A program made the translations under genes and the position numbers. The notes under the pieces are model-generated. The model ran no database searches, was not told the DNA's origin, and worked only from the letters and a program-made list of their open reading frames with translations. Shown here in pieces: positions 2,686-30,228 of a stretch of DNA of 33,949 nt (position 1 is its first letter; the number at the start of each line of letters is the position of its first letter). Source of the stretch: Pseudothermotoga sp. (lineage in GTDB: Bacteria; Thermotogota; Thermotogae; Thermotogales; DSM-5069); assembly GCA_041640575.1 (NCBI GenBank), contig JBEPZZ010000016.1, positions 1 to 33,949 of the forward strand, in the 5' to 3' direction.

Positions 2686-2694
2686 TGCTACAAT
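2686..2694 (+). promoter_or_regulatory. Extended -10 promoter element (TG-c-TACAAT) for the riboswitch/MoxR operon
   Basis: TGCTACAAT ends 6 nt before the first G of the fluoride aptamer at 2701. Confidence 0.65.
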
Positions 2695-2700
2695 GTTGTT

Positions 2701-2747
2701 GGCGATGGAGTCCGCCATATAATTGCCGCACGGCTGATGACTCCTAC
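2701..2747 (+). ncRNA. Fluoride riboswitch aptamer (crcB motif)
   Basis: GGCGATGGAGTCCGCC-ATATAATT-GCCGCACGGC-TGATGACTCCTAC. P1 GGCG(2701-04)/CGCC(2713-16); P2 GCC/GGC (2725-34); pseudoknot GGAGTC(2707-12)/GACTCC(2739-44); conserved GAUG and CUGAUG...CUAC nucleotides. Confidence 0.93.
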
Positions 2748-2768
2748 CCATTGGGGTAGGAGTTTTTT
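2740..2768 (+). terminator. Intrinsic terminator acting as riboswitch expression platform
   Basis: 10-bp stem ACTCCTACCC/GGGTAGGAGT, loop ATTG, then T-tract. The 5' arm overlaps the aptamer pseudoknot strand. Confidence 0.9.
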
Positions 2769-2776
2769 ATTGAGGA

Positions 2777-3478
2777 GTGATGGCTCTGCAAGCTAAAAGC
2801 ATTGTTGAGTCCAAGATCCTGGATTGGCTTGAGATGAAAGAACCGGTTTGTCCAATATGCGGCATAATTAACGACGGTGTTGAGAAGTTTTTTGACAGCA
2901 TATTCTACGAACTTGTGAATGACCCTAAGGTAAGAAGTCAATTACGAGGTGGAATATGCGTCAAACATGCTGACCATATGCTTGATTTTCTTTCGAGACA
3001 TCCGGAACAAGGTATACTTGGCGTATCGATAATTTACGAAGACATCATTTCATTCACAATAGAACAGGTAAAAAACGATAACCAATCTCACAAAAATTGT
3101 GTTTTCTGCGAACATGAGGAAAATCTCGAGAAACTTTATCTCAATGGTTTTCAATCAATTCTTTCCCTGGATGACGGACTGAGAATTTACGAAAAGGCTG
3201 GTTCTGTTTTCTGTTTGAATCATTATGAGAATTTGAGAAAACTGCTGCCTCTTGATTCGTCTGAGAGGTTGAAATTGGCACAAGTAAAGAAGTTAGAGAC
3301 GTTAAAGCAACAATTAAAGACTGTAATCACAAAACACGATTACACGAACAAAGAACCAATGGGTTCAGAAGCCAGAGTTTACAGATACGTAGGCAAGTTA
3401 ATAGCAAATTTAAACACGGCAATAAGGAGGAATTGCAATGACAAATTTGGAAAAATTCGCAAAAAAGATTGTAGATAA
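2777..3478 (+). CDS. DUF6062-like protein with two CxxC...CxxH repeats (putative metal binding)
   Basis: CPIC...GICVKH and CVFC...FCLNH, plus KHDY near the C-terminus. Start is GTG 2777 or ATG 2780. Confidence 0.7.
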   Translation: MMALQAKSIVESKILDWLEMKEPVCPICGIINDGVEKFFDSIFYELVNDPKVRSQLRGGICVKHADHMLDFLSRHPEQGILGVSIIYEDIISFTIEQVKNDNQSHKNCVFCEHEENLEKLYLNGFQSILSLDDGLRIYEKAGSVFCLNHYENLRKLLPLDSSERLKLAQVKKLETLKQQLKTVITKHDYTNKEPMGSEARVYRYVGKLIANLNTAIRRNCNDKFGKIRKKDCR

Positions 3479-4385
3479 CGTGTCAAAGGTTATCGTTGGT
3501 AAGCAAGAAGTTATTCAGAAAATCCTTGCCGCAATGTTGAGTGATGGACACGTACTTCTCAACGACGTACCAGGCGTTGGTAAAACGATGCTTGCAAGAG
3601 CTTTAGCTGCTTCAATCAATTTGTCATTCAACAGGATTCAATGTACTCCAGATCTTCTACCTAGCGATATCACTGGTTTGAATATCTTAGACACAAGAAA
3701 AAATGAGTTCGTCTTTAGAAAGGGGCCTATTTTTACTGACATACTCTTGGTTGACGAAATAAATCGTGCTACACCAAGGACACAATCAGCTTTACTCCAG
3801 GCGATGGCTGAAAAACAAGTAACAGTTGACGGCACAACATATCATCTTGCAGAACATTTCTTTGTGATAGCAACGCAAAACCCTGTTGAGTTCGAAGGTA
3901 CGTTTCCGCTGCCAGAGGCACAACTTGATAGATTTGCAATATGTCTCTCAGTTGGTTATCCAGATAAAGAACAGGAAGCAGAGATGCTCAAAAGAATGAA
4001 AAGAATTCATCCCATAGAAACAATTTCTCCAGTTTGTTCAGTTGATGAGTTAAATGAAGCAAAAAAAGAAGTTCGGAACGTTTACGTCGACGATTCAATT
4101 TTGGAGTACATCATAAGGATTATTACTCGAACCAGAAATTGTGAAGATCTTGCGCTTGGTGCAAGTCCGCGTGGAGCAATAGCCTTGATGCAGCTTTCAA
4201 GAGCGATAGCAGCAATCAGAGGTAGAGATTTCGTTTTGCCAGACGATGTCAAATCTATAGTAATAGATGTCATAGCACACAGAATAATTCTCAAACCCGA
4301 AGCAAGATTGATGAGAAAGACAAAGCAGGCTATCTTATCAGAAATTCTTGAAACCGAGGAGGCTCCTGTGAAAAGTGAAGCTTGA
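3438..4385 (+). CDS. moxR: MoxR-family AAA+ ATPase
   Basis: Walker A DVPGVGKT, RIQCTPDLLPSDITG, Walker B LLVDEINRA, ATQNPVEFEGTFPLPEAQLDRF, GASPRG. Confidence 0.95.
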   Translation: MTNLEKFAKKIVDNVSKVIVGKQEVIQKILAAMLSDGHVLLNDVPGVGKTMLARALAASINLSFNRIQCTPDLLPSDITGLNILDTRKNEFVFRKGPIFTDILLVDEINRATPRTQSALLQAMAEKQVTVDGTTYHLAEHFFVIATQNPVEFEGTFPLPEAQLDRFAICLSVGYPDKEQEAEMLKRMKRIHPIETISPVCSVDELNEAKKEVRNVYVDDSILEYIIRIITRTRNCEDLALGASPRGAIALMQLSRAIAAIRGRDFVLPDDVKSIVIDVIAHRIILKPEARLMRKTKQAILSEILETEEAPVKSEA

Positions 4386-5655
4386 ATTTGACCACGCTAG
4401 CTCGTCTTTAGGACCACTTCTTGGAATAAGTTTAGTCTGCACAGTTTGGATTGTTTTCACAGTCAACGTATTCTCGGTGCTAGCTGCTGTCTTCTGCACT
4501 TTTCTTTGGTTCGAGTACTTAAGAGTAAAGAAAATCTTGTCTTCACTAGTTGTGCAACGTGAGCCTTCAAAAACCAGATTGTTCACAAACCAAGATTTGC
4601 TTATAAAGCACGTGATTTTGTCTCCACTTGGAGACATTGACTTAACAATTAATTCGCAAATAAAAATAGCTGATCTCTTGACTTATACAGCATTAGAGAG
4701 AGTAGTTTTTTTAAGGAAGAACGAACCAGTGGAAATAACTGTTAAAACTTCCTTTGCAACACGAGGGAGAAAATTTTTAACCACTTTCTTTGTTGCATAT
4801 GAGCATCCGCTCTCACTATTCAAGATCTGGTGTCTTTACACTGCACATCAAGAAGTACTGGTTCTACCTAAAATCATGCATCTTGAAAGCTTTCCTTCTC
4901 GTTTGAGAGAGCTTATCCCTGGCAATATCTCTGATTTCAAGCTTCTCGAAGATCCTACATACATAAGAGGAGTAAGAGAATACAACAACGAACCTTTGAA
5001 CAAGGTGCACTGGAAAATATCAGCTAAACTTGGCTCACTTCAAGTTAAAGAACTTGATTACACAGCAATTAGCAATAATCTCATATATGTAGATCTTAAT
5101 CTTTCAAGGGAAATCTTTGCCAGAAATGTTTGGGCTCAAATAAGAATGCATTATGAAGAAGATGCCGTTTTGGTTGCCTCATCTATTCTGTACCTGCTTA
5201 CCAGAAACGGGAATTTTGTTGATCTGATTGTCGTTGGAAAAGAAGTTTTGAAAAGAGATTACAAGCCAACGTCAGATTGGGTTAGTGCCGTCGAACTTTT
5301 GGCGATAGCAAAAGGTGACGAAAACGGGCCACAACTTGTTGAAGAATTGGAGAAAGAACTAGAAAGGTTGACACCATCCACGACTCTGACTGTGATTTCA
5401 ATGTATCTAACAGATTCATTGTTACCCTTACTGATAAAAGCTAGGGCAAAGTGCGCGCGAGTTATGGTCTTTCTGATACCCTACGGTTTCAGAGATCCTA
5501 GATACAAGCCAAGCAGAACTTATGAAATGTACCCGATAGACATGCAAAGGCTTTTCGAAAAGGCGAAAATTCTGCAGAAAGAACAGATAATTGTTAACAT
5601 AGTTAAACCGAGTCAAACAATACAGGAGGTTTTCGATGAAATCCAAGGCTTTTGA
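4375..5655 (+). CDS. DUF58 domain (vWA-like) protein with N-terminal transmembrane segment
   Basis: GVREY...VHWKISAK...LQVKE DUF58 motif; standard position after moxR. Confidence 0.88.
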   Translation: MKLEFDHASSSLGPLLGISLVCTVWIVFTVNVFSVLAAVFCTFLWFEYLRVKKILSSLVVQREPSKTRLFTNQDLLIKHVILSPLGDIDLTINSQIKIADLLTYTALERVVFLRKNEPVEITVKTSFATRGRKFLTTFFVAYEHPLSLFKIWCLYTAHQEVLVLPKIMHLESFPSRLRELIPGNISDFKLLEDPTYIRGVREYNNEPLNKVHWKISAKLGSLQVKELDYTAISNNLIYVDLNLSREIFARNVWAQIRMHYEEDAVLVASSILYLLTRNGNFVDLIVVGKEVLKRDYKPTSDWVSAVELLAIAKGDENGPQLVEELEKELERLTPSTTLTVISMYLTDSLLPLLIKARAKCARVMVFLIPYGFRDPRYKPSRTYEMYPIDMQRLFEKAKILQKEQIIVNIVKPSQTIQEVFDEIQGF

Positions 5656-7033
5656 ATTGGGCATGATTTATCTTTGTATTGGTCTATTTGTAATCTATCT
5701 CACATCAGCCCTGCTACCAATATGGGCATCGATAGCTATATCAACAGTAGCAGTTCTTACAACAGTTATCTTGTCTGGTAACCTTGGATGTTCGATGATA
5801 CTTGCGCTCCCGATAATTTTTTTCGGCTCGATTTTCGTTGTTGGCCTTTTGAAACTTGATTTTGCTACCGCACTGTTTGTTAGCTTTTCAACAGTGCTTG
5901 TAATACTTATTTATACAGCTGAGAACTTCATCTCTATAACGGCAATGATAGGTTTGGGAGTTTATTTGACTTTCGTGAAATCGCACAACCCATTTTTTGA
6001 TTCATTGTTTTTTGCCACGGTAATATTGTGCTGGTATATCTCGAAAATGAAGAGAATAAAGCTAGGGAGATTGGCCCAATACTTATTGGTTGTATTGACT
6101 GTATCAATATTGGTTTCGAGATTAGATGTGTATCCACTGAAAACTCTTTTGACTCGGTTGCAACCATTTGAACAGACCTCTCGTCAAGAAATACAAATCG
6201 AGGAACAAATTTCAATCGGCACGAAAGCTTCGCGCCAATTCAGCACAGAAACAAGGCCTAATTGGTTGAACAAGCTTGTTGAGAAAATATGGATCCCACT
6301 GACTTTGCTCCTTTTTGGTGTATTTCTTTTCACCTTTGCCATTACAAACTTCGGTATAAAAGGTACATTGAGATTGCTCTTGCTAGGGGCTTTGTTCTTT
6401 ATAGCTTTCACTACTGTAGCTTCTATGATCTTTCGTTCAATTAAGCCAGGTTATGAACTGTTTCCACCGGAACAATCTTATGAGGTCAGATTAGAAGCTC
6501 AGCAAGGTGTTGAACAAGTAATGGTCAAGGAACAAAAAATCACCACTGAAGAATCATTCGAAACCGTTAGCTACAACTTGACGTTAATCCTTGATTTGCT
6601 AACTCTGAGCCTTTTGGTATTCATGACCATCTTGGTTGTGAATTATGTTCTAAAAAGCCGTCTGAAACTTGAGAATGAAAAAACCACAGCAAGGGGAGAA
6701 CAAATTCCACAAGATGTCGAACTGTATCCATTGGATAAGATTCCAGAATTTGTTCAAACCGAGGATTTTATAAAATCCGCATACTGGTGGTTAAGAAGAA
6801 AATACTTTCCAACTTTGCACCATTTGACGCCGCGCGAACTGATTGATTCAACTAATCTTCAAATCAAATCTTTTGAGGATTTAACATTGATCTACGAGAA
6901 AGTCAGATATGCTGGAAAAGGGATTGAAAAAGAAGAATTGGAAAAGTTTTACCAGGATCTACTCGAAACAGTTGCAGGAATCGAAAAAACAAGATTTAGT
7001 GAAGCTGATAAAGAAAAATCACAGGGGGTTTAA
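5636..7033 (+). CDS. Polytopic membrane protein with C-terminal DUF4129-like domain
   Basis: Many hydrophobic helices; C-terminal LTPRE...LTLIYEKVRY motif; usual partner of moxR-DUF58. Confidence 0.75.
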   Translation: MKSKAFELGMIYLCIGLFVIYLTSALLPIWASIAISTVAVLTTVILSGNLGCSMILALPIIFFGSIFVVGLLKLDFATALFVSFSTVLVILIYTAENFISITAMIGLGVYLTFVKSHNPFFDSLFFATVILCWYISKMKRIKLGRLAQYLLVVLTVSILVSRLDVYPLKTLLTRLQPFEQTSRQEIQIEEQISIGTKASRQFSTETRPNWLNKLVEKIWIPLTLLLFGVFLFTFAITNFGIKGTLRLLLLGALFFIAFTTVASMIFRSIKPGYELFPPEQSYEVRLEAQQGVEQVMVKEQKITTEESFETVSYNLTLILDLLTLSLLVFMTILVVNYVLKSRLKLENEKTTARGEQIPQDVELYPLDKIPEFVQTEDFIKSAYWWLRRKYFPTLHHLTPRELIDSTNLQIKSFEDLTLIYEKVRYAGKGIEKEELEKFYQDLLETVAGIEKTRFSEADKEKSQGV

Positions 7034-7043
7034 AACCCCCTGT
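7021..7043. terminator. Hairpin between convergent genes (putative bidirectional terminator)
   Basis: ACAGGGGGTT-TAA-AACCCCCTGT; lacks a clear U-tract. Confidence 0.7.
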
Positions 7044-7045
7044 AG

Positions 7046-8859: not shown

Positions 8860-9252
8860 ATGCCTTTATCTAATCACATTCAAAGTGCTGATTGGAAAGC
8901 GGAAAAGCACGTTCCAGTGATCGAATGCGCCGATACCGTAAAGGCAAACGAATGGTTTGAAGTAAAAGTTTCGGTTGGTAAAGAGATACCTCATCCAAAC
9001 ACAACTGAACATCACATTAAGTGGATTAAACTGTTTTTCATGCCTGAAGGAGAAAAGTTCATATATGACGTTGCCACATTTGAATTCAATGTACACGGCG
9101 AATCTGTAGCTGGTGCAAACCAAGGAAGTGTTTGGACTCATTCTGCAGGTGTTACGTGGATGAAAATCACTAAACCCGGAACAATTTATGCTCTTGCTTA
9201 CTGCAATATTCATGGACTGTGGGAGAGCAGTAAAGCAATCAAGGTTGAATGA
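8860..9252 (+). CDS. sor: Superoxide reductase (neelaredoxin, 1Fe-SOR)
   Basis: EKHVP, HPNTTEHHI and YCNIHGLW iron ligands; no desulforedoxin domain. Confidence 0.93.
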   Translation: MPLSNHIQSADWKAEKHVPVIECADTVKANEWFEVKVSVGKEIPHPNTTEHHIKWIKLFFMPEGEKFIYDVATFEFNVHGESVAGANQGSVWTHSAGVTWMKITKPGTIYALAYCNIHGLWESSKAIKVE

Positions 9253-9256
9253 ATGA

Positions 9257-9281
9257 GGTGCCGGTGTCCCGGCACCATTTT
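9257..9281 (+). terminator. GC-rich hairpin between sor and fprA (terminator/attenuator or stabiliser)
   Basis: GGTGCCGG-TGTC-CCGGCACC followed by ATTTT. Confidence 0.65.
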
Positions 9282-9297
9282 GTAAGGAGGTTCACAA

Positions 9298-10500
9298 ATG
9301 AGACCGATAGAAATCAAATCCGGTGTCTATTGGGTGGGTGTTAACGATAGATTGACACAGCTTTTTGAAGGTCTTTGGCCAATAGGAGCTGAAGGCGTTT
9401 CTTACAACGCCTACCTTGTAACCGATGAAAAGAATGCTTTGATAGACTTAGCAAAATCCGTGAAAACCGACGAGTTTGTTGACCAGATAGAAGAGGTCAT
9501 TCCGGTTTCAAAACTTGATTATGTGGTAGTAAATCACATGGAGCCAGATCACACCGGTGTGCTGAGTTTGTTCAAAAAGTTAGCACCAAACGCGACAATC
9601 TTGATCAGTGAAAAAGGTTTGAAAATGCTTCAAGCTTATTATCATATCGATTCAAATATAAGAATAGTAAAAGACGGAGAAGAACTCCCTCTTGGCAACA
9701 AAACCTTGAAGTTTTTCTACACCCCATTCGTGCACTGGCCAGAGACAATGATGACTTATGAAAAAACGAACAAGATACTTTTCTCTTGCGATGGATTTGG
9801 TGGTTACGGTGCTTTACGTGGAACGATCTTTGACAATGAATGTCAGGATAAGAGTTTTTATATCAGAGAAATGCTTAGATACTATGCTAACATAGTTGCA
9901 ACTTTTAGTCGAAATGTTCTGAAGGCAATTGAGAAGTTACAGAACCTTGATGTTGAAATCATTGCGCCATCGCATGGATTAATATGGCGAAGTGAACCTT
10001 CACTTGTTGTGAATCTTTATAAACAGTGGGCAGAATATGCGCTCAAACCGTCTGAGAAAGCTGTGACGTTGATTTATGGTTCAATGTATGGAAATACAGA
10101 AAGGGTAATGAGCAGCCTTCTTAACGGTTTGGCAAAATCGGGTGTCCCGGTGGAAGTTTACAACGTTACCGAAACACACGTTAGCTATATCCTTGCTTCT
10201 TTATGGAAGAACAGAGGAGTAGTGATAGGCGCTCCAACATACGAGGGTTCTCTTTTCCCTCCTATGGAAGACGTACTGCGGATGGCGACGGTCAAGCATG
10301 TGCAGAATAAAACTGCTATGGTTTTTGGGAGCTATGGTTGGAGTGGTGGAGCCTCAAGAAGAGTCAAGGAAATTGTAGAGCCTTTGAAATGGGAAATTAC
10401 AGATGTTTTTGAGTTCCAAGGTGGTCCGACAGAGGAAATCCTTGGCAAAGCGGAAGAACTTGGATACAATTTCGGTAAGAGAATCTTAGAACAGGTTTGA
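9298..10500 (+). CDS. fprA: Flavodiiron protein (FprA, O2/NO reductase)
   Basis: HMEPDH, HWPET, FSCDGFG, APSHG diiron motifs; flavodoxin domain SMYGNT and GSYGWSG. Confidence 0.93.
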   Translation: MRPIEIKSGVYWVGVNDRLTQLFEGLWPIGAEGVSYNAYLVTDEKNALIDLAKSVKTDEFVDQIEEVIPVSKLDYVVVNHMEPDHTGVLSLFKKLAPNATILISEKGLKMLQAYYHIDSNIRIVKDGEELPLGNKTLKFFYTPFVHWPETMMTYEKTNKILFSCDGFGGYGALRGTIFDNECQDKSFYIREMLRYYANIVATFSRNVLKAIEKLQNLDVEIIAPSHGLIWRSEPSLVVNLYKQWAEYALKPSEKAVTLIYGSMYGNTERVMSSLLNGLAKSGVPVEVYNVTETHVSYILASLWKNRGVVIGAPTYEGSLFPPMEDVLRMATVKHVQNKTAMVFGSYGWSGGASRRVKEIVEPLKWEITDVFEFQGGPTEEILGKAEELGYNFGKRILEQV

Positions 10501-19077: not shown

Positions 19078-19582
19078 GGCAGCTGTTGAGGCTTTAATTT
19101 TCGCTTCAAGGGGGATAACTTCGGAAAAACTCGCCGAACTTCTCAAAATATCTAGGGAAGAAGTCGAGAAGATTCTTGATGAAATTGCTCAGGAATTTGA
19201 TTCGTCGGAACATGGTGTGGAACTCAAAAAGGTTGGAGATGTGTATCGATTTTACACAAAAGTTGAATATGCTCAGCTGGTGCAAACTGTCAGTAGATCT
19301 GTTTACACGAAGCTTTCAGTTCCACAGCTAGAGATTGTCGCGATTTTGATGCTGAACGGTCCATCAACTCTGCAAACAATTAATGAACTAAGAGGGAAAG
19401 ACTCATCAGCTTTGGTTAGATCACTTCATAAAATGGGGATTCTCAAAAGGAAAAGGCAGAAAAATTCTTACGTCTACAATCTTTCGGAAAGCTTTAAGGA
19501 CTTACTAATGATAGAAGAAGTGCCCGGCGCATCCACCGAGCACTTGCAAGCAATTAAACCTTCACTTTCTTCTGAGGAGTAA
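19061..19582 (+). CDS. scpB: Segregation and condensation protein B
   Basis: EALIFAS, LS---LE--A, I-ELRG--S; follows scpA. Confidence 0.9.
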   Translation: MILNPRAAVEALIFASRGITSEKLAELLKISREEVEKILDEIAQEFDSSEHGVELKKVGDVYRFYTKVEYAQLVQTVSRSVYTKLSVPQLEIVAILMLNGPSTLQTINELRGKDSSALVRSLHKMGILKRKRQKNSYVYNLSESFKDLLMIEEVPGASTEHLQAIKPSLSSEE

Positions 19583-21179
19583 CAAACTCGCAAACTCCTT
19601 TTGGGCAACTTTTGGCACCGATATGTGCCAAGAAATCTTGCTCAAAATTCCGGAGTATCGAAAGCAATGGTACATTGATGCTTTGACCAAGACCACATAA
19701 TGAGGCTTCTTGAGTAACCCTTGCGATTTCTTTGAGAGTTTCAAGATCCTCTCTCTTTCCTTGCCCTCTACTCATTTTTCTAAGAATTTGCACTGCCAAC
19801 CTAGTTCCTTCCCTGCATGGAGTACACTTTCCACAAGATTCGTGCTCAAAGAACTGCATCGTATTAAGTGCCACGTCTACGGCGCATACATCCTCACTCA
19901 TAGCCAAAATAACGCCAGAACCAATTGATGCACCATGCTTTGCATAAGAATCATAATCCAAAGGAGCGTCAAGTTTGTCAACACCTATGAAAGTTCCAGC
20001 TGTTCCTCCAGTCTGCACCATATACAACTCCTTGCCACCAACCAATCCACCACCAAATCTGTAGATCAGGTCTCTAACGGTCGTTCCCATTGGTACTTCG
20101 ACAATACCCCGTCTAACAACGTTTCCAACCAGCGAATAGACCTTTGTGCCAGGAGAATTTGGCGTTCCGAAAGATTTGAACCAGTTTGGCCCATTGAGAA
20201 TGATAGCTGGAATGTTCGCAAAAGTTTCTACATTATTAATAACCGTTGGTTTTCCAAACAGTCCATGTGTAGGTGGATATGGTGGTTTGAGTCTTGGTCT
20301 GCCGGAGTTTCCTTCGATGGATTCAAGAAGTGCTGTTTCTTCTCCACAAATGTATGCACCAGCACCCAATCTTACTGTGAGATCAAAACAAAATTCTGTT
20401 CCCATAATGTTCTTGCCAAGAAATCCGTATTCGTACGCATCTTTGACAGCTTTTTGAATGTTTTCAACCGATCCGTAATATTCTCCTCTAATGTAGATAT
20501 ATCCCTTGTTTGCCCCCACGGCGTATCCACAGATTACCATTGCTTCGACGACTGAATGTGGGTCGCCTTCCATGATTAACCTATCTTTGAAAGTACCAGG
20601 CTCTCCTTCATCGGCATTACAAACAACATATTTTTGATCCGCTTCAACCTTGGCAGTGAATTCCCACTTCAGTCCAGTTGGAAAGCCTGCTCCGCCACGG
20701 CCTCTTAAACCAGAGGCTTTCACCAAGTTGATAACATCCTGAGGTTTCATCTCGGTCAAAACTTTGTGCAAGGCAAAATAGCCATCCCTAGCAATGTATT
20801 CTTCTATGTTCCTCGGATCAATCACTCCAACGTTTCTCAAAACTATTCTCGTTTCGGTCGAAACTTTCTCTTTCTCAACAACAACTTTTAATCGTTCTCT
20901 TGGCACTTCTAAACTAATCACTGGCCTACCTTTCAAAAGATGTTCGGCGACAATCTTCTCAACATCTTGAACTGTCTTTACGGAGTAATAAACATCATCT
21001 GGAAAGACTGCCATCAAAACACCTTGAGTGTAAACACCCATGGTACCAGTTTCGAGAACATCAACTGTGTCACTGAGGTTGAATTTTTGAATCAATTCTC
21101 TAAGGTAATTCACAAATTGTCTTGCACCGAGAAGAACGCTATTAGAATCTACGGAAACAAGAACGATTGTTGGTTTCAT
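19554..21179 (-). CDS. NuoF/HydB-like NAD(P)H-binding flavoprotein, copy 2 (no C-terminal ferredoxin domain; Cys-less N-terminal thioredoxin-like domain)
   Basis: GLRGRGGAGFPTGLKW, NADEGEPGTFKDR, GAGAYICGEET, ESCGKCTPCREG...SLCGLG. Confidence 0.92.
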   Translation of the reverse strand: MKPTIVLVSVDSNSVLLGARQFVNYLRELIQKFNLSDTVDVLETGTMGVYTQGVLMAVFPDDVYYSVKTVQDVEKIVAEHLLKGRPVISLEVPRERLKVVVEKEKVSTETRIVLRNVGVIDPRNIEEYIARDGYFALHKVLTEMKPQDVINLVKASGLRGRGGAGFPTGLKWEFTAKVEADQKYVVCNADEGEPGTFKDRLIMEGDPHSVVEAMVICGYAVGANKGYIYIRGEYYGSVENIQKAVKDAYEYGFLGKNIMGTEFCFDLTVRLGAGAYICGEETALLESIEGNSGRPRLKPPYPPTHGLFGKPTVINNVETFANIPAIILNGPNWFKSFGTPNSPGTKVYSLVGNVVRRGIVEVPMGTTVRDLIYRFGGGLVGGKELYMVQTGGTAGTFIGVDKLDAPLDYDSYAKHGASIGSGVILAMSEDVCAVDVALNTMQFFEHESCGKCTPCREGTRLAVQILRKMSRGQGKREDLETLKEIARVTQEASLCGLGQSINVPLLSILRNFEQDFLAHIGAKSCPKGVCEFVTPQKKVKV

Positions 21180-21667
21180 GCTTTACCACCACCGTTTCTT
21201 AGATTATCTATGATTTCTTTCACTTTTCTGGGTGTCAGGTCTCCAAAATACTGGTCGTTTACCATAATCACAGGTGCAACTCCACAAAGGCCAAGACAAC
21301 TGGTCGTTTCCAAGGTAAACATGCCATCTTTAGTAGTCTGTCCAAAATCTATTTGCAAGGTTTCTTTAAGTGCTTTAACAATTTCCCGGCCACCTGTTAC
21401 ATGGCATGGCAAATTTACGCAAACTCGGATTACATATTTTCCTCTGGGATGAGTTGAAAACATTGTGTAGAAAGTGAGAACTTCATAAACTTTGGATTCT
21501 GGAACTTTCAATTCCTCTGCAACAAGTTGAGCTGCTTCCACAGGAACATAGTTACCAAAATAATCTTGGATTCTGTGTAGAGTATTAATTAGAACGTCTC
21601 GTTCCTCCAAAGACTCCGTTTTCACTTTTCTTATTATCTCGCGCACCTTCTCGCGATCGAGTGCCAT
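21176..21667 (-). CDS. NuoE/HydC-like [2Fe-2S] subunit, copy 2
   Basis: TFYTMF, CVNLPC...CLGLC four-Cys motif. Confidence 0.92.
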   Translation of the reverse strand: MALDREKVREIIRKVKTESLEERDVLINTLHRIQDYFGNYVPVEAAQLVAEELKVPESKVYEVLTFYTMFSTHPRGKYVIRVCVNLPCHVTGGREIVKALKETLQIDFGQTTKDGMFTLETTSCLGLCGVAPVIMVNDQYFGDLTPRKVKEIIDNLRNGGGKA

Positions 21668-21680
21668 CTAAGCCCCCCTT

Positions 21681-23480
21681 TCACGGAGATACTTTACTTA
21701 TTGCTCCGAATCGGCAAACCTCTATACAACTTCCACACCTTATGCAAATTTCATTATCAATGGTGTGCACCTTGCGAACCTCTCCACTAATTGCGTTGAC
21801 TGGACACACTCTGGCACACGCGGTACATCCAACACACTTTGTCGGATCTATAACATACCTGATCAAACTTTTGCATTTTAAGGACGGACAGCGTTTTTCC
21901 TTAACATGGGCTTCGTATTCATGCCTGTAGTATCTAAGGGTACTTAGAACCGGATTCGGGGCGGTTTGTCCTAAGCCACACAACGAGGAATCTTTTATCA
22001 CGTTGCCAAGAGTTTCGAGCCTCTCAATGTCCTCCATCGTGCCTTCTCCAGAAACAATTCTTTCGAGAATTCTAAGCATTTCTCGTGTTCCTTCACGGCA
22101 AGGTGTGCACTTTCCACACGATTCATCAACAGTAAATTCCAAGAAAAACCTTGCCACGTCAACCATGCAGTCGTCCTCGTCCATCACAATCATTCCGCCA
22201 GAACCCATTATTGCTCCAAGCTTTTGCAACGATTCATAATCTACCGGTGTGTCAAAGTACTCCGATGGGATACAACCGCCACTTGGTCCTCCAGTTTGAA
22301 CTGCCTTAATTCTCTTTTTGGTTGAAGATCCGCCACCGATTTCGTACAATAGTTCTCTCAATGTTATGCCCATTGGAACTTCAACCAATCCTGTGTTTGT
22401 TATCTTTCCAGCAAGAGCAAAAACCTTAGTCCCTGGAGATTTTTCGGTACCAATGCTTCTGAACCAATTCGCACCCTTAATGATTATTGGTGGTATACAT
22501 GCAAGAGTCTCAACATTATTTATGACGGTCGGCATTCCCCAAACTCCGCTTTGGGCAGGATAGGGGGGCTTAACACGCGGTTGACCTCTCTTACCTTCCA
22601 CTGAAGCTATTAAGGCTGTTTCTTCGCCACAAACAAAAGCTCCTGCTCCAATTCTGATCTCTATGTCAAAACTGAAACCCTTTCCCATAATGTTTTGTCC
22701 GAGAAATCCATATTCTTTGGCTTGTGCTATTGCAATATTTAGTCGTTCTATTGCCAATGGATATTCGGCTCGAACATAGATATATCCTTGATTTGCACCT
22801 ATAGCATACCCACCAATAGCCATGGCTTCCAAAACCGTATGAGGATCTCCTTCGAGAACTGAACGATCCATGAAGGCACCAGGGTCACCTTCGTCAGCAT
22901 TGCATATGATAAACTTCCTTTCTCCCTTTGCCTTCCTGGTGAGTTCCCACTTCAAACCCGTCGGGAAGCCAGCTCCGCCTCTTCCACGTAAACCACTCTT
23001 CTTGATCTCTTCGATCACTTGTTCAGGTGTCATTTCGTTTAGAACTTTAGCCAATGCGAAGTAACCATCTCTTGCTATGTATTCCTCAATATTCGATGGG
23101 TCTATGTAACCAACATTCCTTGTGGCAATCTTGACTTGTCTTGCAAAAAATGGAAGCTTTTCCATTGCCTCCGGAACGACCTCTCCGGTTGGCATCTTGT
23201 AGAGGTGCTCTTGGACTATCCTCCCTTTCAAGATATGCTCTTGCACAATTTTTCTTGCGGCATCAGGCGTCAATTTCTGGTAGAAGACTCCTTCTGGATA
23301 AATTAGCATTAATGGTCCCAGACTGCAAGCGCCCATACAACCAGTTTCAACAACTCTTACAACATCCTGAAGGGCATACTTCTCTATCTCTTTTTCAAGA
23401 GCACTTTTAACACTTTCCTCACCAGCTGATATGCACGCTCCTCCGGCGCATATCAGTATCGTGCTTGTTGTTAAAGGCAC
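21681..23480 (-). CDS. NuoF/HydB/HndC-like flavoprotein, copy 1 (N-terminal [2Fe-2S], FMN/NAD site, C-terminal 2x[4Fe-4S])
   Basis: CAGGAC...CMGAC, NADEGDPGAFMDR, GGPSGG, ESCGKCTPCREG, CVGCTACARVCP, CIRCGSCIEVC. Confidence 0.94.
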   Translation of the reverse strand: MPLTTSTILICAGGACISAGEESVKSALEKEIEKYALQDVVRVVETGCMGACSLGPLMLIYPEGVFYQKLTPDAARKIVQEHILKGRIVQEHLYKMPTGEVVPEAMEKLPFFARQVKIATRNVGYIDPSNIEEYIARDGYFALAKVLNEMTPEQVIEEIKKSGLRGRGGAGFPTGLKWELTRKAKGERKFIICNADEGDPGAFMDRSVLEGDPHTVLEAMAIGGYAIGANQGYIYVRAEYPLAIERLNIAIAQAKEYGFLGQNIMGKGFSFDIEIRIGAGAFVCGEETALIASVEGKRGQPRVKPPYPAQSGVWGMPTVINNVETLACIPPIIIKGANWFRSIGTEKSPGTKVFALAGKITNTGLVEVPMGITLRELLYEIGGGSSTKKRIKAVQTGGPSGGCIPSEYFDTPVDYESLQKLGAIMGSGGMIVMDEDDCMVDVARFFLEFTVDESCGKCTPCREGTREMLRILERIVSGEGTMEDIERLETLGNVIKDSSLCGLGQTAPNPVLSTLRYYRHEYEAHVKEKRCPSLKCKSLIRYVIDPTKCVGCTACARVCPVNAISGEVRKVHTIDNEICIRCGSCIEVCRFGAISKVSP

Positions 23481-23494
23481 TCAAATCACCTCTT

Positions 23495-23872
23495 TTAGAT
23501 TTCTCCTTTTCTGACAAGGAGATCTGTGACGATTTGATTGTTCATGATGTGAAGTTTAACGATTCTTTTTGCATTTTCAACACTAACATGACCATAAACA
23601 ACTGGTTCCTGACCTTCGAGTCTGACTTCCACGGTTGGCTCAACCTCGCAAAGACCCATGCAACCAGATTGAACTACTGAGATATCGTTTAGATTGTTTT
23701 CATTCAGTGCCTCAACTATGGCTTTCAAAGTCTCTTTTGCACCAGCTGCTATTCCGCAGGTTCCCATGGCTACAGTTATCTTTCCCCTTTTCCCAGTATC
23801 TCTAAGTTGAAGATCCTTGAGAGCTTTTTCCTTAATTTTCATGAGTTCTTCAAGAGACTTCACTTTGCTCAT
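23495..23872 (-). CDS. Thioredoxin-like ferredoxin-family subunit (HndB/HydD-like)
   Basis: MGTCGIAAGA and SGCMGLCEVEP; three Cys as in HndB-type proteins. Confidence 0.88.
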   Translation of the reverse strand: MSKVKSLEELMKIKEKALKDLQLRDTGKRGKITVAMGTCGIAAGAKETLKAIVEALNENNLNDISVVQSGCMGLCEVEPTVEVRLEGQEPVVYGHVSVENAKRIVKLHIMNNQIVTDLLVRKGEI

Positions 23873-24372
23873 TTTTGCCCCTCCTTATACTTCGCAATTA
23901 TCCTTGGAACCATGTCCGGTTTTAACCTACCGTAGAAATCTTTTTCACCAATCAAAATGACTGGTGCCATGCTGCATGCACCAAGACATCTGACAGGATG
24001 TACAGAAAACATCCCATCTTTTGTCGGTTCCTCTGGCTTAACTTGCAGTTCTTCAAGAAATCTTTCCAAAACTCTATCGGCACCCTTTACATAGCAGGCT
24101 GTACCAAGACATACTTTTATTTGGATCTTACCCTTTGGTTTCGTTGAGAAAAAATTGTAGAAGGTCACAACGCCATAGACCTGGGAAACAGGGATTTTCA
24201 AAGCTTCCGCAATATGTTCTTGAACTTCCGGCGACAAGTACCCAAACAACTCTTGAGCTTTCTGAAGAATTGAGATTAACAACTCAGGTTTAGCACCTAC
24301 GGATTCAATGTAGTTGTCCAGTTCCTTGAAAAGTCTTTCACCAGTTGTACATACATCTGCCAAATAGGCCAC
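23869..24372 (-). CDS. NuoE/HndA-like [2Fe-2S] subunit, copy 1
   Basis: VYGVVTFYNFF, CLGTAC...CLGAC. Probable start is TTG at 24363 after GAGGAGG. Confidence 0.92.
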   Translation of the reverse strand: MAYLADVCTTGERLFKELDNYIESVGAKPELLISILQKAQELFGYLSPEVQEHIAEALKIPVSQVYGVVTFYNFFSTKPKGKIQIKVCLGTACYVKGADRVLERFLEELQVKPEEPTKDGMFSVHPVRCLGACSMAPVILIGEKDFYGRLKPDMVPRIIAKYKEGQK

Positions 24373-24861: not shown

Positions 24862-27243
24862 ATGAATATACAACAAATCGATAGAGTTTGGAAAGCATGC
24901 TGCTACTTATCCGTAGGTATGATTTATCTCAAAGATAATGCATTGCTAGGAGAGAAGTTAAAAAAGGAACATATAAAAGACAGGCTCTTGGGACATTGGG
25001 GCGCATCACCAGCGATAGCTTTTGCTTATGTACACATAAGCAGATTAATTAAAGAGCGCAATCTCAATTGTATATTCATACCTGGTCCAGGTCATGGCAT
25101 GGCTGGTTTTCTGGCGGGTGTTTATCTGGAAGGTTCTTTGATGGAGCACTACCCAGAATTTTCGTTAGACGAATGGGGAATGACTAACCTTTTCAGGGCT
25201 TTTTCATTCCCAGGTAAATTGGGAAGTCATTGTACACCTGAGATTCCCGGATCTATTCAAGAAGGAGGAGAGCTGGGATACTCGTTGTCGCATGCTTACG
25301 GAACGGTTTTTGACAATCCAGACCTTATAACAGTTGCTATGGTTGGAGATGGAGAGGCAGAAACAGGTCCACTTGCAGCCGCTTGGCATTCCAATAAATT
25401 TTTGAACCCTGCAAAGAGCGGTGTAGTTTTACCGATCCTTTCCTTAAATGGTTACAAGATAAACAATCCAACCATCTTTGCACGTATTGAGGATGAAGAA
25501 CTCATTTATTTGTTCAAAGGGTATGGATATGAGCCAAAGATTGTAGATGGAGCAGAAAATTCAGAGATTCATGAAAAAATGTACGATGCGCTAAATTGGG
25601 CCATAGATAGGATCAACGAAATCTGGGAAGAAAGCAGAAATAATGGAAATCTGAAAAGACCTGTCTATCCCATGTTAATACTCAGAACACCCAAAGGTTG
25701 GACAGCACCTAGGAAAGTGGAAGAACATTTTGTGGAAGGCTATTGGAGGTCTCATCAGGTACCCATAACAAATGTCAAAGAAGACGAAAAGAGATTGCAG
25801 ATCTTGGAAGATTGGCTGAAAAGTTACAATCCACAAGATCTTTTTAGCGACTTTGAAAGCCTAAGGACGTTTTTCCCACATGGAGAAAAAAGACTAGGAT
25901 CCAACCCTCATACCAACGGTGGTAAGTTAAGAAAACCACTAAAGCTGCCTCATATAGAGGATCACGCTGTGAATTTAGATGCACCGTTTAATGTTGTCTA
26001 CGAGAACACGTTACCATTAGGACAATTTTTGTCTAGCGTGATGGACATGAACAAAGATAACTTCAGGGTTTTTGGCCCGGATGAGACACATTCTAATAGG
26101 CTGTATCATGTGTTTAAGCATGGAAAGGCTTGGATGGGTAAAGTCTTACCGGAAGATGTGGACGAAGGGCATCTTGATCCAAACGGGAAAACCATGGAAA
26201 TATTATCTGAACACACAATAGAAGGTTGGCTTGAAGGGTACCTATTAACTGGAAGACACGGCTTCTTAAACACGTACGAAGGTTTTGCACCGATTATTGT
26301 GTCGATGGTAAATCAATTTGGTAAGTGGCTTGATATATCTTCAGATGTTCACTGGAGGGCACCTATATCTTCTTTAAACATTCTTCTTACCTCAGTGGTA
26401 TGGAGACAAGATCACAATGGTTTCACACATCAAGACCCAGGTTTCATCAATGCAATAGTAGACAAATGGCCTAACATAGTGAGAGTGTATTTCCCAGCAG
26501 ATGCTAACTGCCTCTTAGCGACAGTTAAATACTGTTTAGACACAACAAACAGGATAAATGTTATAGTCATAGACAAGCAAAAACACCCGCAATATTTGGA
26601 TATAAACAAAGCGCAGCAGCATATAATAAAAGGAATCAGTATATGGGAGTTTGCTTCTAATCATCCTTATGAAGAGCCAGATGTAGTAATAGCATCTTGC
26701 GGAGATATACCTACCAAAGAAGCTGTATCAGCAGCTTTAACGTTGAGAGAAATATTCCCGGATGTAAAAATAAGGTTTGTGAACGTACATAATCTCTTTA
26801 GGCTTACACCAAGCTTTGAGCATCCGGAAGGGCTCACCGATCAGGAATTCGATGCCTATTTTACAACGAGCAAGCCCATAATATTCAACTTCCACGGTTA
26901 TCCCTGGCTTATACACAGACTTACGTACAAGCGCACTAATCACAAGAATTTACACGTCAGAGGTTATAGAGAAAACAGAAAGATAGGCATAGACGCCACG
27001 CACCTTTCCTCTATGTTAAAAGGTAGAGGTGGGATCACAACACCTATGCAACTTGCTATTATTAACCAAATAGACCGTTTCAGCATAACTATGGATGTAA
27101 TAGACAGATTACCACAATTAAAGGATAAAGCTGGACGCTTAAGGGACCGGCTCAAGGAAATTCAGCTAGATGTATTAAGGCACGCATACAAATATGGAAT
27201 TGATGAAGAAAAATACAACACCGTTGGGATAATTGAAATCTAA
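24862..27243 (+). CDS. xfp: Phosphoketolase (xylulose-5-P/fructose-6-P, TPP-dependent)
   Basis: LLGHWG, GPGHG, EGGELGYSL, GDGEAETG, LSEH--EGWLEGYLLTGRH, QDHNGFTHQDPGF. Confidence 0.96.
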   Translation: MNIQQIDRVWKACCYLSVGMIYLKDNALLGEKLKKEHIKDRLLGHWGASPAIAFAYVHISRLIKERNLNCIFIPGPGHGMAGFLAGVYLEGSLMEHYPEFSLDEWGMTNLFRAFSFPGKLGSHCTPEIPGSIQEGGELGYSLSHAYGTVFDNPDLITVAMVGDGEAETGPLAAAWHSNKFLNPAKSGVVLPILSLNGYKINNPTIFARIEDEELIYLFKGYGYEPKIVDGAENSEIHEKMYDALNWAIDRINEIWEESRNNGNLKRPVYPMLILRTPKGWTAPRKVEEHFVEGYWRSHQVPITNVKEDEKRLQILEDWLKSYNPQDLFSDFESLRTFFPHGEKRLGSNPHTNGGKLRKPLKLPHIEDHAVNLDAPFNVVYENTLPLGQFLSSVMDMNKDNFRVFGPDETHSNRLYHVFKHGKAWMGKVLPEDVDEGHLDPNGKTMEILSEHTIEGWLEGYLLTGRHGFLNTYEGFAPIIVSMVNQFGKWLDISSDVHWRAPISSLNILLTSVVWRQDHNGFTHQDPGFINAIVDKWPNIVRVYFPADANCLLATVKYCLDTTNRINVIVIDKQKHPQYLDINKAQQHIIKGISIWEFASNHPYEEPDVVIASCGDIPTKEAVSAALTLREIFPDVKIRFVNVHNLFRLTPSFEHPEGLTDQEFDAYFTTSKPIIFNFHGYPWLIHRLTYKRTNHKNLHVRGYRENRKIGIDATHLSSMLKGRGGITTPMQLAIINQIDRFSITMDVIDRLPQLKDKAGRLRDRLKEIQLDVLRHAYKYGIDEEKYNTVGIIEI

Positions 27244-28887: not shown

Positions 28888-30228
28888 ATGAAAGTAAGAG
28901 TACAAGTCGACATTAAGAAATTTATTGAGAACAAAGATTTTAGAACGCTAAAAATGCTTCTTTCTGAACAAGAACCTGCAGAAATACTTGAAATGATCGA
29001 AGAACTGCCATCCGACGAAAAAATCGTCGTTTTTCGTTTGTTACCAAAAGATAAAGCTGCCCTTGTTTTCAGTGAATTAGAAGCAGATGACCAGATAGCC
29101 TTAATAGAACTATTCAAAGAGGAAAAACTTAGAGAAATCTTCCTTTCAATGGATCCAGACGATAGAGCCGAACTTCTAGAAGAAATGCCAGCAAATGTGG
29201 TCAATCAATTACTATCTTATCTAGCACCAGATGAAAGAAAACTTACTTTGTCTTTACTCAACTATCCTGAGAACTCCGCTGGACGTCTGACAACACCGAA
29301 GTGTCTCGAATTGTACGAAAGCATGACTGTCAAAGACGCTCTGGAGAAGATCAGGAAGGAGGGTAAGGACAAAGAAACTGTACAGGTAATGCCGATTATT
29401 GATAAAACCAGGAAATTAGTTGGTACCGTTGAGCTTCAAGATTTGATTTTTGCGGATCCTGATAGTTTTGTAAATCAAATCATGAATCCAGAACCTGTTT
29501 TTGTCTATGCAACCGATGACCAAGAGCATGTCGCACAAGTGATGAGAAAATATGACTTATTCGTGGTTCCAGTTGTGGACAGTGAGCAAAGACTCATAGG
29601 AATTATAACCATAGACGACGTAATAGATGTTATCGACGAAGAAGCAACAGAAGATATTCAGAAGATGAGCTCAGTTATCACTATAGAAGAATCATATTTC
29701 CACACCAGTCTTTTCAAGTTAATAGGAAGGCGAACACCATGGTTGATAGCTCTCTTACTTTTAGGAACTCTGAGCCAGGGAATAATATCAAGTTTCGAGG
29801 GTCTTCTAGCGACTTTGCCGATAATAGCTGCCTTTATGCCGGCTATGATTGATTCAGGTGGAAATATAGGTTCTCAAATCTCCGCCCTGATAATACGAGG
29901 AATGGCGCTTGGTGAAATCAAGCAAAAAGATTGGTGGAGGGTTTTAACCAGAGAACTGGTTGTATCTTCAATGATGGCTTTCATCCTCGCGATTGCACTT
30001 TTCTTAAGATCGATGATAACAACATCTGCCCTAAATGTGAGTCTCGCCGTGTCCACTGCTTTGATCGTTGTTACAATTTATTCAAATCTTTTGGGTGCTT
30101 CATTACCATTCATCGCTAAGACAATACACGTTGATCCAGCTATAATGGCTGGACCGCTCTTAACAACGATTGTCGATATATCAGGAATTGCAATTTACTT
30201 CTACGTCATAAAACTTTTCTTTGGCTAA
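28888..30228 (+). CDS. mgtE: Magnesium transporter MgtE
   Basis: N-domain MDPDDRAELLEEMP, YPENSAG, tandem CBS domains, GIITIDDVID, R-PWL, GGN-GSQ, DPA-MAGPL-TT-VD. Confidence 0.96.
   Translation: MKVRVQVDIKKFIENKDFRTLKMLLSEQEPAEILEMIEELPSDEKIVVFRLLPKDKAALVFSELEADDQIALIELFKEEKLREIFLSMDPDDRAELLEEMPANVVNQLLSYLAPDERKLTLSLLNYPENSAGRLTTPKCLELYESMTVKDALEKIRKEGKDKETVQVMPIIDKTRKLVGTVELQDLIFADPDSFVNQIMNPEPVFVYATDDQEHVAQVMRKYDLFVVPVVDSEQRLIGIITIDDVIDVIDEEATEDIQKMSSVITIEESYFHTSLFKLIGRRTPWLIALLLLGTLSQGIISSFEGLLATLPIIAAFMPAMIDSGGNIGSQISALIIRGMALGEIKQKDWWRVLTRELVVSSMMAFILAIALFLRSMITTSALNVSLAVSTALIVVTIYSNLLGASLPFIAKTIHVDPAIMAGPLLTTIVDISGIAIYFYVIKLFFG

Follow-up and report, generated by a model that had tools for sequence, protein, structure and literature searches.

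In this work, we found that a fluoride riboswitch (crcB motif, Rfam RF01734) in Pseudothermotoga sp. controls four genes that encode a DUF6062 protein, a MoxR-type AAA+ ATPase, a DUF58 protein, and a polytopic membrane protein with a DUF4129-like domain, rather than a known fluoride exporter. The locus lies on contig C16, a stretch of 33,949 nucleotides (33.9 kb; hereafter the window) in a 1.97-Mb assembly of 123 contigs that is 93.7% complete (genome G000). The sequencing run that carries this DNA is labelled as a hot springs metagenome. The riboswitch is genuine and has a fluoride-ON architecture. Beyond this locus, DUF6062 and, separately, the MoxR-DUF58-DUF4129 module are recurrent members of fluoride regulons. 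As for function, we give roughly even chances to the operon being a fluoride-induced, membrane-anchored AAA+ system for remodelling or repair, with DUF6062 as a separable companion.

The RF01734 covariance model matches positions 2692-2753 (+) over its full length (model positions 1-64) with 52.3 bits against a gathering score of 34 (E 6.8e-12), and no other Rfam family is matched in the window. Read from the sequence, the aptamer consists of P1 (2701-2704/2713-2716), P2 (2725-2727/2732-2734), and a pseudoknot in which 2707-2712 (GGAGTC) pairs with 2739-2744 (GACTCC). An intrinsic terminator, a hairpin with a U-run at 2739-2768 (+), serves as the expression platform; its stem (2739-2764) has 11 pairs and a loop of 4, a T-run follows, and its 5′ arm (GACUCCUACCC) opens with the 3′ strand of the pseudoknot (GACUCC in the RNA). 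The leader (2692-2785) has a minimum-energy fold of -38 kcal/mol (z -4.17) that none of 200 shuffled sequences equalled. Among 23 related leaders, 99.6% of P1 and pseudoknot positions pair, compared with 40-57% in slid controls, and compensatory changes occur in 6 of the 10 pairs. All 23 also have a terminator stem that overlaps the pseudoknot strand and ends in a U-rich tail. An earlier note on this DNA had proposed a complete crcB-motif aptamer, a GACTCC strand shared by the pseudoknot and the terminator, and the architecture of a fluoride-ON transcriptional switch; the model match, the overlap kept in every leader, and the covariation bear out each of these. Its placement of the aptamer at the predicted transcription start stands in part: an extended -10-like promoter element (TGCTACAAT, 2686-2694, +) was spotted by eye and would put the start near 2701, but a consensus promoter scan that required a -35 match did not list it.

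The crcB RNA design outlined in the accessible part of Weinberg (2010) makes the ligand-stabilised pseudoknot and the terminator mutually exclusive. At this locus, the terminator (2739-2768) would form when fluoride is absent, and transcription would stop ahead of the genes. When fluoride is present, the pseudoknot (2707-2712/2739-2744) would hold the 5′ arm of the terminator and RNA polymerase would read through. Based on what is established for this riboswitch class, we infer that the operon is induced by fluoride.

The four open reading frames (ORFs) overlap by 41, 11, and 20 nucleotides (nt) and are probably translationally coupled. The first (2780-3478, +; alternative GTG start at 2777) encodes a DUF6062 protein of 232 amino acids (aa; PF19538, 54.1 bits against 27, E 1.9e-14). 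The second (3438-4385, +) encodes a 315-aa MoxR-type ATPase with AAA_3 (210 bits, E 1.2e-62, model positions 1-130 of 131) and AAA_lid_2 (85.2 bits, E 2.5e-24) domains, both above the cut-off; its closest solved chain is PDB 2r44 (E 3.5e-75). The third (4375-5655, +) encodes a 426-aa DUF58 protein (PF01882, 25.5 bits against a cut-off of 23.4) in which an N-terminal hydrophobic hairpin (about residues 9-49) precedes a vWA-like DUF58 domain. The metal ion-dependent adhesion site (MIDAS) position of this domain reads D-L-N-L-S in the window and its relatives, a degenerate form of the intact vWA motif DxSxS. A profile search with DUF58 against the PDB gave no match. The predicted complex of DUF58 (residues 60-426) with DUF6062 scored 0.01, which is evidence neither way.

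The fourth gene (5636-7033, +) encodes a 465-aa polytopic membrane protein whose match to the DUF4129 family (PF13559) has 19.3 bits and falls under the cut-off of 24.8; its orthologue P0154 has PF13559, and P0155 is named DUF4129 in its source. About seven N-terminal transmembrane (TM) helices are followed by two low-confidence linkers and further long hydrophobic helices, and the DUF4129-like domain is C-terminal and predicted to be cytosolic (about residues 376-462). The AlphaFold2 model is poor, with a predicted local distance difference test (pLDDT) score of 64.8. Foldseek returned nothing at E ≤ 0.001, a PDB sequence search returned nothing, and neither a transglutaminase core nor a BatA/B-type vWA domain was detected with Pfam. 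Hydropathy predicts DUF6062 and MoxR to be soluble, with one hairpin in DUF58 and about 8-10 hydrophobic helices in the DUF4129-like protein. Pfam and hydropathy thus agree with the four overlapping ORFs that the earlier note had described as a Cys/His-rich protein, a MoxR ATPase, a vWA-like DUF58 protein, and a polytopic membrane protein, with the DUF4129 match remaining sub-threshold.

The linkage between riboswitch and operon extends across the order, for which 41 genomes were compared, namely G000, 17 other members of its family, and two sister families of 12 (f2) and 11 (f3) genomes. RF01734 is present in 22 of the 41: G000, 15 of its 17 family relatives, 6/12 in one sister family, and 0/11 in the other. 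These genomes hold 23 riboswitch loci. Seventeen precede DUF6062 and/or MoxR, with DUF6062 following in 16 and MoxR in 16 (locus L008 ends before MoxR, and at L010, in G003, the riboswitch leads directly into MoxR). The remaining six precede genes for MutS-related MutS_V proteins of about 500 aa (L013, L015, L016, L017, L020, and L023, in G040, G022, G038, G026, G020, and G001), an association of crcB RNAs with mutS that the available text of Weinberg (2010) already reports. None of the 23 loci precedes crcB. Among family leaders examined, window included, 16 of 16 precede DUF6062 and/or MoxR. This survey bears on the possibility, raised in the earlier note, that the riboswitch is an orphan left by a lost or rearranged exporter gene and that the position of the operon is accidental. 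No exporter gene is nearby, as such a history would have it; but the same leader-gene junction occurs at 17 loci in the order with the covarying structure and the terminator intact, and it also occurs in other phyla. Because the junction is conserved, the orphan idea is contradicted, and we consider it extremely improbable.

Natural variants within the family separate the parts of the operon. In G003, where the riboswitch precedes MoxR, no DUF6062 was found in the genome. In G001, a complete genome of the same genus, the DUF6062 gene (locus L082, about 95-900 nt 3′ of the riboswitch) has decayed: a T7 run is the site of a frameshift, and an internal deletion shortens the second repeat to CxxC-9 aa-CxxH. 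MoxR, DUF58, and DUF4129 are intact behind the riboswitch. The DUF6062 gene of G007 has an in-frame TAG. G007 (L080) and G009 (L079) have the operon, and no riboswitch was detected there even at E ≤ 1; in both, about 45-50 nt separate the end of the upstream gene from DUF6062.

In G000, RF01734 is matched only once genome-wide, in front of this operon, and the sole strong AAA_3 gene and the sole DUF58 gene are both in the operon. The one MoxR-DUF58 pair found in the genome is therefore placed behind the one fluoride sensor found there. No match to CRCB (PF02537) or CLC (Voltage_CLC, PF00654) was obtained in the window, consistent with what the earlier note had stated about fluc and clcF, and none was obtained in the rest of the 93.7%-complete assembly or in the complete genome G001. 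Across the order, CRCB was found in 20 of the 41 genomes: 2/17 among the family relatives (one of them above the cut-off), 8/12 in f2, and 10/11 in f3. Both CRCB and CLC are missing from the matches in 9 of the 18 family genomes (G000, G001, G002, G003, G006, G007, G013, G015, and G017), of which six are at least 93% complete. These patterns are suggestive of a clade that has the riboswitch-MoxR operon and is largely without CrcB.

Such a distribution could arise if the polytopic DUF4129 protein were itself a new fluoride export path, or part of one, that MoxR and DUF58 assemble or gate and that replaces CrcB in this clade. Within the order, the module is present in 16/17 family relatives compared with 2/17 for CRCB, and one sister family shows the reverse, with strong module homologues in 0/11 and CRCB in 10/11. 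The roughly 8-10 TM helices of the protein would also suit a transporter, as would the lack of CrcB or CLC matches in G000, G001, G002, G003, and G006. However, the protein shows no likeness to known channels or transporters, its model is poor (pLDDT 64.8), and its TM regions are weakly conserved, with 15-18% identity between Thermotogota and Chloroflexota. A 323-aa version at the Chloroflexota locus L141 is without most of the N-terminal TM block, and elsewhere DUF6062 adjoins crcB instead of replacing it. Moreover, the related genomes are non-independent samples, so the complementarity between CRCB and the module is suggestive only. We regard an export path as quite unlikely, and a remodelling system is favoured over an exporter.

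The gene most widely tied to fluoride riboswitches is DUF6062. Searched exhaustively with a profile, the family comprises 2,525 clusters (50% identity) at E ≤ 0.001, of which 1,226 reach E ≤ 1e-10; a word-index homology search found 2 proteins only. Sampling one genome per species gave 49 DUF6062 loci, which span seven or more phylum-level groups: Thermotogota, Clostridia and other Bacillota, Armatimonadota (Chthonomonas), Aerophobetes, Dictyoglomota, Chloroflexota, Spirochaetota, Thermodesulfobacteriota/Syntrophaceae, Atribacterota, Endomicrobia, Rubrobacter, and Desulfurococcales archaea. At Rfam gathering thresholds, 29 of the 49 show an RF01734 match 5′ of DUF6062 and in its orientation, directly before DUF6062 in 22 and with intervening genes in 7. 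Locus L056 has a further sub-threshold match (22.5 bits) 45 nt 5′ of DUF6062, and three of the 20 riboswitch-negative loci have less than 600 nt of upstream sequence. Given one or two riboswitches per genome, chance co-location of the two within 6 kb should be well under 1%.

The operon partners of DUF6062, identified with Pfam on 150 ORFs, are diverse. CrcB follows DUF6062 with AP_endonuc_2 behind a riboswitch (L054, L058, and L062) or with DUF190 (L055), and riboswitches also precede Na_H_Exchanger and DUF6062 (L066), a dynamin-like GTPase and DUF6062 (L061 and L073), or DUF6062 alone (L042, L044, L046, L050, and L053). Neighbours elsewhere include MFS genes (L052, L056, L074, L075, and L078) and Usp with MFS (L077). 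Enolase precedes DUF6062 at two loci where no riboswitch was found (L051 and L064). The MoxR-DUF58-DUF4129 module follows DUF6062 only at the Pseudothermotoga-type loci among the 49 (L030-L036 and L038), and MoxR is near DUF6062 in L047, L048, L056, and L072. The DUF6062-riboswitch linkage is mostly one without MoxR. A second conserved context occurs in Bacillota, where a nitronate-monooxygenase/FabK-like gene is followed by DUF6062 with no riboswitch (L059, L063, L070, and L076); this may hint at a role of DUF6062 beyond fluoride. The archaeal loci (L037 and L041, both Desulfurococcales) also have no detected fluoride riboswitch, and in L037 DUF6062 lies between genes for an ABC-transporter permease and a Bmp-type binding protein.

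The MoxR module, for its part, recurs behind fluoride riboswitches in another phylum. Among 151 Chloroflexota genomes, 52 have RF01734 at E ≤ 0.001, 37 of them above the cut-off. In the best 30 loci, for which 1.5-kb flanks were analyzed, crcB is downstream in 13 and neither MoxR nor DUF6062 was found downstream; one of these (L098), from an unpublished genome, had no match and supports no claim. In 20 further loci with 4 kb downstream, two of them shortened by contig ends, we found crcB in 6, MoxR on the same strand in 3, and DUF6062 in 2. The three MoxR loci differ in gene order. In L139, the riboswitch is followed by DUF6062 (413 aa), a 142-aa ORF, MoxR, DUF58, and DUF4129 (68.8 bits); in L140, by MoxR, DUF58, and DUF4129; and in L141, by DUF4129 (323 aa), a 172-aa ORF, MoxR, and DUF58. 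In Pfam, these counterparts score 38.5-55.5 bits for DUF58 and 27-68.8 bits for DUF4129. Their MIDAS position reads D-V-Q-T-V, N-I-N-T-F, or D-T-F-E-D, and is thus degenerate in both phyla, and their DUF58 proteins share 16-20% identity with that of the window. Three gene orders combined with such low identity suggest that the linkage is repeated or ancient, not the product of one recent transfer.

These surveys also speak to the idea that DUF6062 alone is the fluoride-specific effector, and that MoxR-DUF58-DUF4129 has a general chaperone role in the envelope or under stress and happens to share the DUF6062 transcript in this lineage. The riboswitch at 29/49 DUF6062 loci, mostly without MoxR, would be expected under that idea, as would the retention of the operon without a riboswitch in G007 and G009. 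Published MoxR/DUF58 operons, within the portions of those reports available, are likewise tied to general stress tolerance and not to fluoride. It is harder to reconcile with the riboswitch lying directly before MoxR where DUF6062 is absent (G003 and L140), with the intact riboswitch and MoxR module beside a decayed DUF6062 in G001, with the gated MoxR/DUF58 copy being the only one in G000, and with three different Chloroflexota gene orders that are all behind RF01734. We consider this explanation unlikely.

A related alternative is compensatory over-production, in which metal fluorides inhibit the MoxR ATPase and the cell makes more of it, as has been proposed for riboswitch-controlled enolase and pyrophosphatase. 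Fluoride-sensitive enzymes are known members of the fluoride regulon (PMC11139923, in its available text), and dynamin-like GTPases, which are also Mg-NTPases, share DUF6062 operons (L061 and L073). However, the terminator gates the sole MoxR/DUF58 copy, so the module would be largely off without fluoride, which is unexpected for a housekeeping enzyme that needs a top-up. This alternative seems to us very unlikely.

We return to the preferred reading, in which MoxR, DUF58, and the DUF4129 protein would together act as an ATP-driven remodelling machine attached to the membrane. When fluoride stress arises, this machine may repair or re-assemble membrane or metal-dependent proteins, and DUF6062 would be a separate, widespread fluoride-regulon protein that was recruited to the MoxR transcript. 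The earlier note had raised repair of enzymes poisoned by Mg-F/Al-F complexes, alongside a new export route, as candidate mechanisms, and the computations on their own do not set one above the other. The reading draws on analogy with MoxR/vWA chaperones (NorQD, CbbQO, and RavA-ViaA) and on the membrane anchoring; the specific repair of fluoride-damaged proteins is less probable than the remodelling reading as a whole. Several observations weigh against it. With 93.7% completeness, a crcB gene may have been overlooked, although for G000 alone. CLC is found in 9 of the 17 family relatives, and these proteins might transport fluoride; that of G010 has the motifs GSGIP, GREGP, and GGIFLP (GxFxP), which are presumably canonical chloride-type CLC signatures. 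MoxR lies behind 3 of the 50 Chloroflexota riboswitch loci compared with 19 of 50 for crcB. The MIDAS of DUF58 is degenerate, unlike those of the metal-dependent vWA partners in characterised MoxR systems. The decay of DUF6062 in G001, its TAG in G007, and the failure to find it in G003 indicate that the parts are separable and that joint action is not required, and the operons of G007 and G009 without a riboswitch indicate that the module is not strictly tied to fluoride. A broader scenario is that thermophiles without exporters in fluoride-rich hot springs survive fluoride by means of a riboswitch-induced, membrane-anchored MoxR-DUF58-DUF4129 machine together with DUF6062, which would strip metal-fluoride-blocked membrane proteins or drive extrusion with ATP; we put it forward tentatively, as possible but doubtful.

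The DUF6062 protein contains two CxxC...CxxH modules (C24, C27, C60, and H63; C107, C110, C145, and H148). All of 103 diverse members keep C24, C60, C145, and H148, and conservation is at least 90% at P25, C27, Y43, R52, G58, H63, C107, C110, K185, Y188, and E197. The N- and C-terminal halves are homologous (hhalign, 97.5%, E 8.6e-12), which indicates tandem duplication of a helical module, CxxC-(32-34 residues)-CxxH. From these residues, the protein probably has two Cys3His metal (zinc) sites and binds about two Zn. The AlphaFold2 model (pLDDT 91.8; predicted template modelling score 0.85) is all-helical, with ten helices, and hydropathy shows no hydrophobic stretch in the protein. Foldseek against the PDB gave a best E of 0.25 and a PDB sequence search gave no relative; the wide VIA search gave a best Z of 5.8 and weak rows of carboxymuconolactone-decarboxylase type (Z 3.7-4.0), none of them usable. 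ZAS anti-sigma domains are small helical zinc modules with Cys3His ligands. The DUF6062 module is likewise small and helical with Cys3-His ligands, but their order and spacing differ (CxxC-32/34 aa-CxxH, duplicated), and with no sequence or fold match to solved structures the likeness is a resemblance, not membership. Tandem DUF6062 gene pairs (L045, L049, L056, and L072) or double-length proteins of 413-522 aa with several matched stretches are frequent (L139; proteins P0053, P0081, P0094, P0108, and P0115), which suggests that DUF6062 units work in pairs.

The flanks of the operon are unrelated to it, and the remaining window is housekeeping. Upstream, a PHO4-family transporter gene (1588-2538, -) points away from the riboswitch operon; NCBIfam matches it best to a CysP-type sulfate permease, with a score far under the cut-off, and among the riboswitch loci examined this neighbourhood is common to the window and G001 only. 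Downstream, a GC-rich hairpin (7020-7044) includes the stop codon of the operon (7031-7033) and scores as a terminator for the convergent gene on the reverse strand, which encodes an UshA-like 5′-nucleotidase. Further along, a neelaredoxin-type superoxide reductase gene is followed by one for a flavodiiron (FprA/flavorubredoxin-like) protein (8860-10500, +), a pair for oxygen/NO detoxification that is typical of anaerobes. Consecutive genes at 19554-24372 (-) encode two NuoF-like and two NuoE-like proteins and resemble electron-bifurcating hydrogenase or NADH:ferredoxin modules, and the window also contains genes for a phosphoketolase (24862-27243) and MgtE (28888-30228). Two other Pseudothermotoga loci have a purine riboswitch (RF00167) about 2.2 kb 3′ of the operon (L032, 12403-12505; L035, 12612-12681), and none was found in the window. 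We also considered anti-phage defence and rejected it, as PADLOC gave only generic P-loop matches for MoxR (E 2.4e-5 or weaker) and none for the other three proteins.

MoxR/vWA chaperones are expected to use ATP to remodel a target protein or to handle its cofactor. Known pairs (NorQ-NorD, CbbQ-CbbO, RavA-ViaA, and chelatase motors), some of which are covered in the accessible parts of PMC9976466 and PMC13036017, likewise have a MoxR-class ATPase gene beside a vWA-like partner. The operon in the window differs from them in that its DUF58 protein is membrane-anchored with a degenerate MIDAS, its third component is a polytopic DUF4129 protein, and it is under the control of a fluoride riboswitch. 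The Bacteroides Bat operon, Borrelia BB0170-0176, and the bifidobacterial PFNA cluster share the order MoxR, DUF58, and membrane protein with overlapping genes, as far as their abstracts describe them. Unlike these systems, for which the abstracts report no fluoride regulation, the third protein in the window has no detected transglutaminase core or BatA/B-type vWA domain.

Textbook fluoride resistance consists of export by Fluc and CLC-F together with over-production of a few sensitive enzymes. Baker et al. in 2012 reportedly placed the RF01734 crcB motif before crcB/Fluc or eriC-F/CLC-F genes. The available text of a 2024 review (PMC11139923) adds to the exporters Na+/H+ antiporters, pyrophosphatase (ppa), HAD phosphatases, enolase (eno), formate hydrogen lyase, and chorismate mutase. 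The genes linked to crcB RNAs in the accessible part of Weinberg (2010) include mutS, K+/Cl- transport, and formate hydrogen lyase, and its supplements, to the extent available, mention neither MoxR nor COG0714 nor ATPase. In the open-access literature, which leaves the gene table of Baker 2012 outside the search, we found no paper that links fluoride riboswitches to MoxR or DUF58, nor any mention of DUF6062; MoxR and the fluoride riboswitch are co-mentioned only as separate topics. As far as this search goes, the operon appears to represent a fluoride-stress system of an undescribed kind.

The substrates of MoxR proteins are mostly unknown, and a defined inducing stress is a rare handle on their function. 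If the broader scenario above is true, DUF6062, a family of about 2,500 sequence clusters, would constitute a large part of the prokaryotic fluoride response that has gone unrecognised. Both this large Cys/His family and the widespread MoxR-DUF58-DUF4129 module become testable components of that response. To the known systems, the window adds DUF6062 and the MoxR module on one transcript, a clade largely without CrcB, and natural variants in which the parts come apart (G003, G001, G007, and G009). Canonical fluoride riboswitch units have the same aptamer of P1, P2, and pseudoknot, and the same ON arrangement with a terminator over the 3′ pseudoknot strand, and they control transporters or the enzymes listed above. 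In contrast, the unit in the window, which is the one fluoride sensor detected in a genome that gave no match to Fluc or CLC, controls the genes of DUF6062 and MoxR-DUF58-DUF4129.

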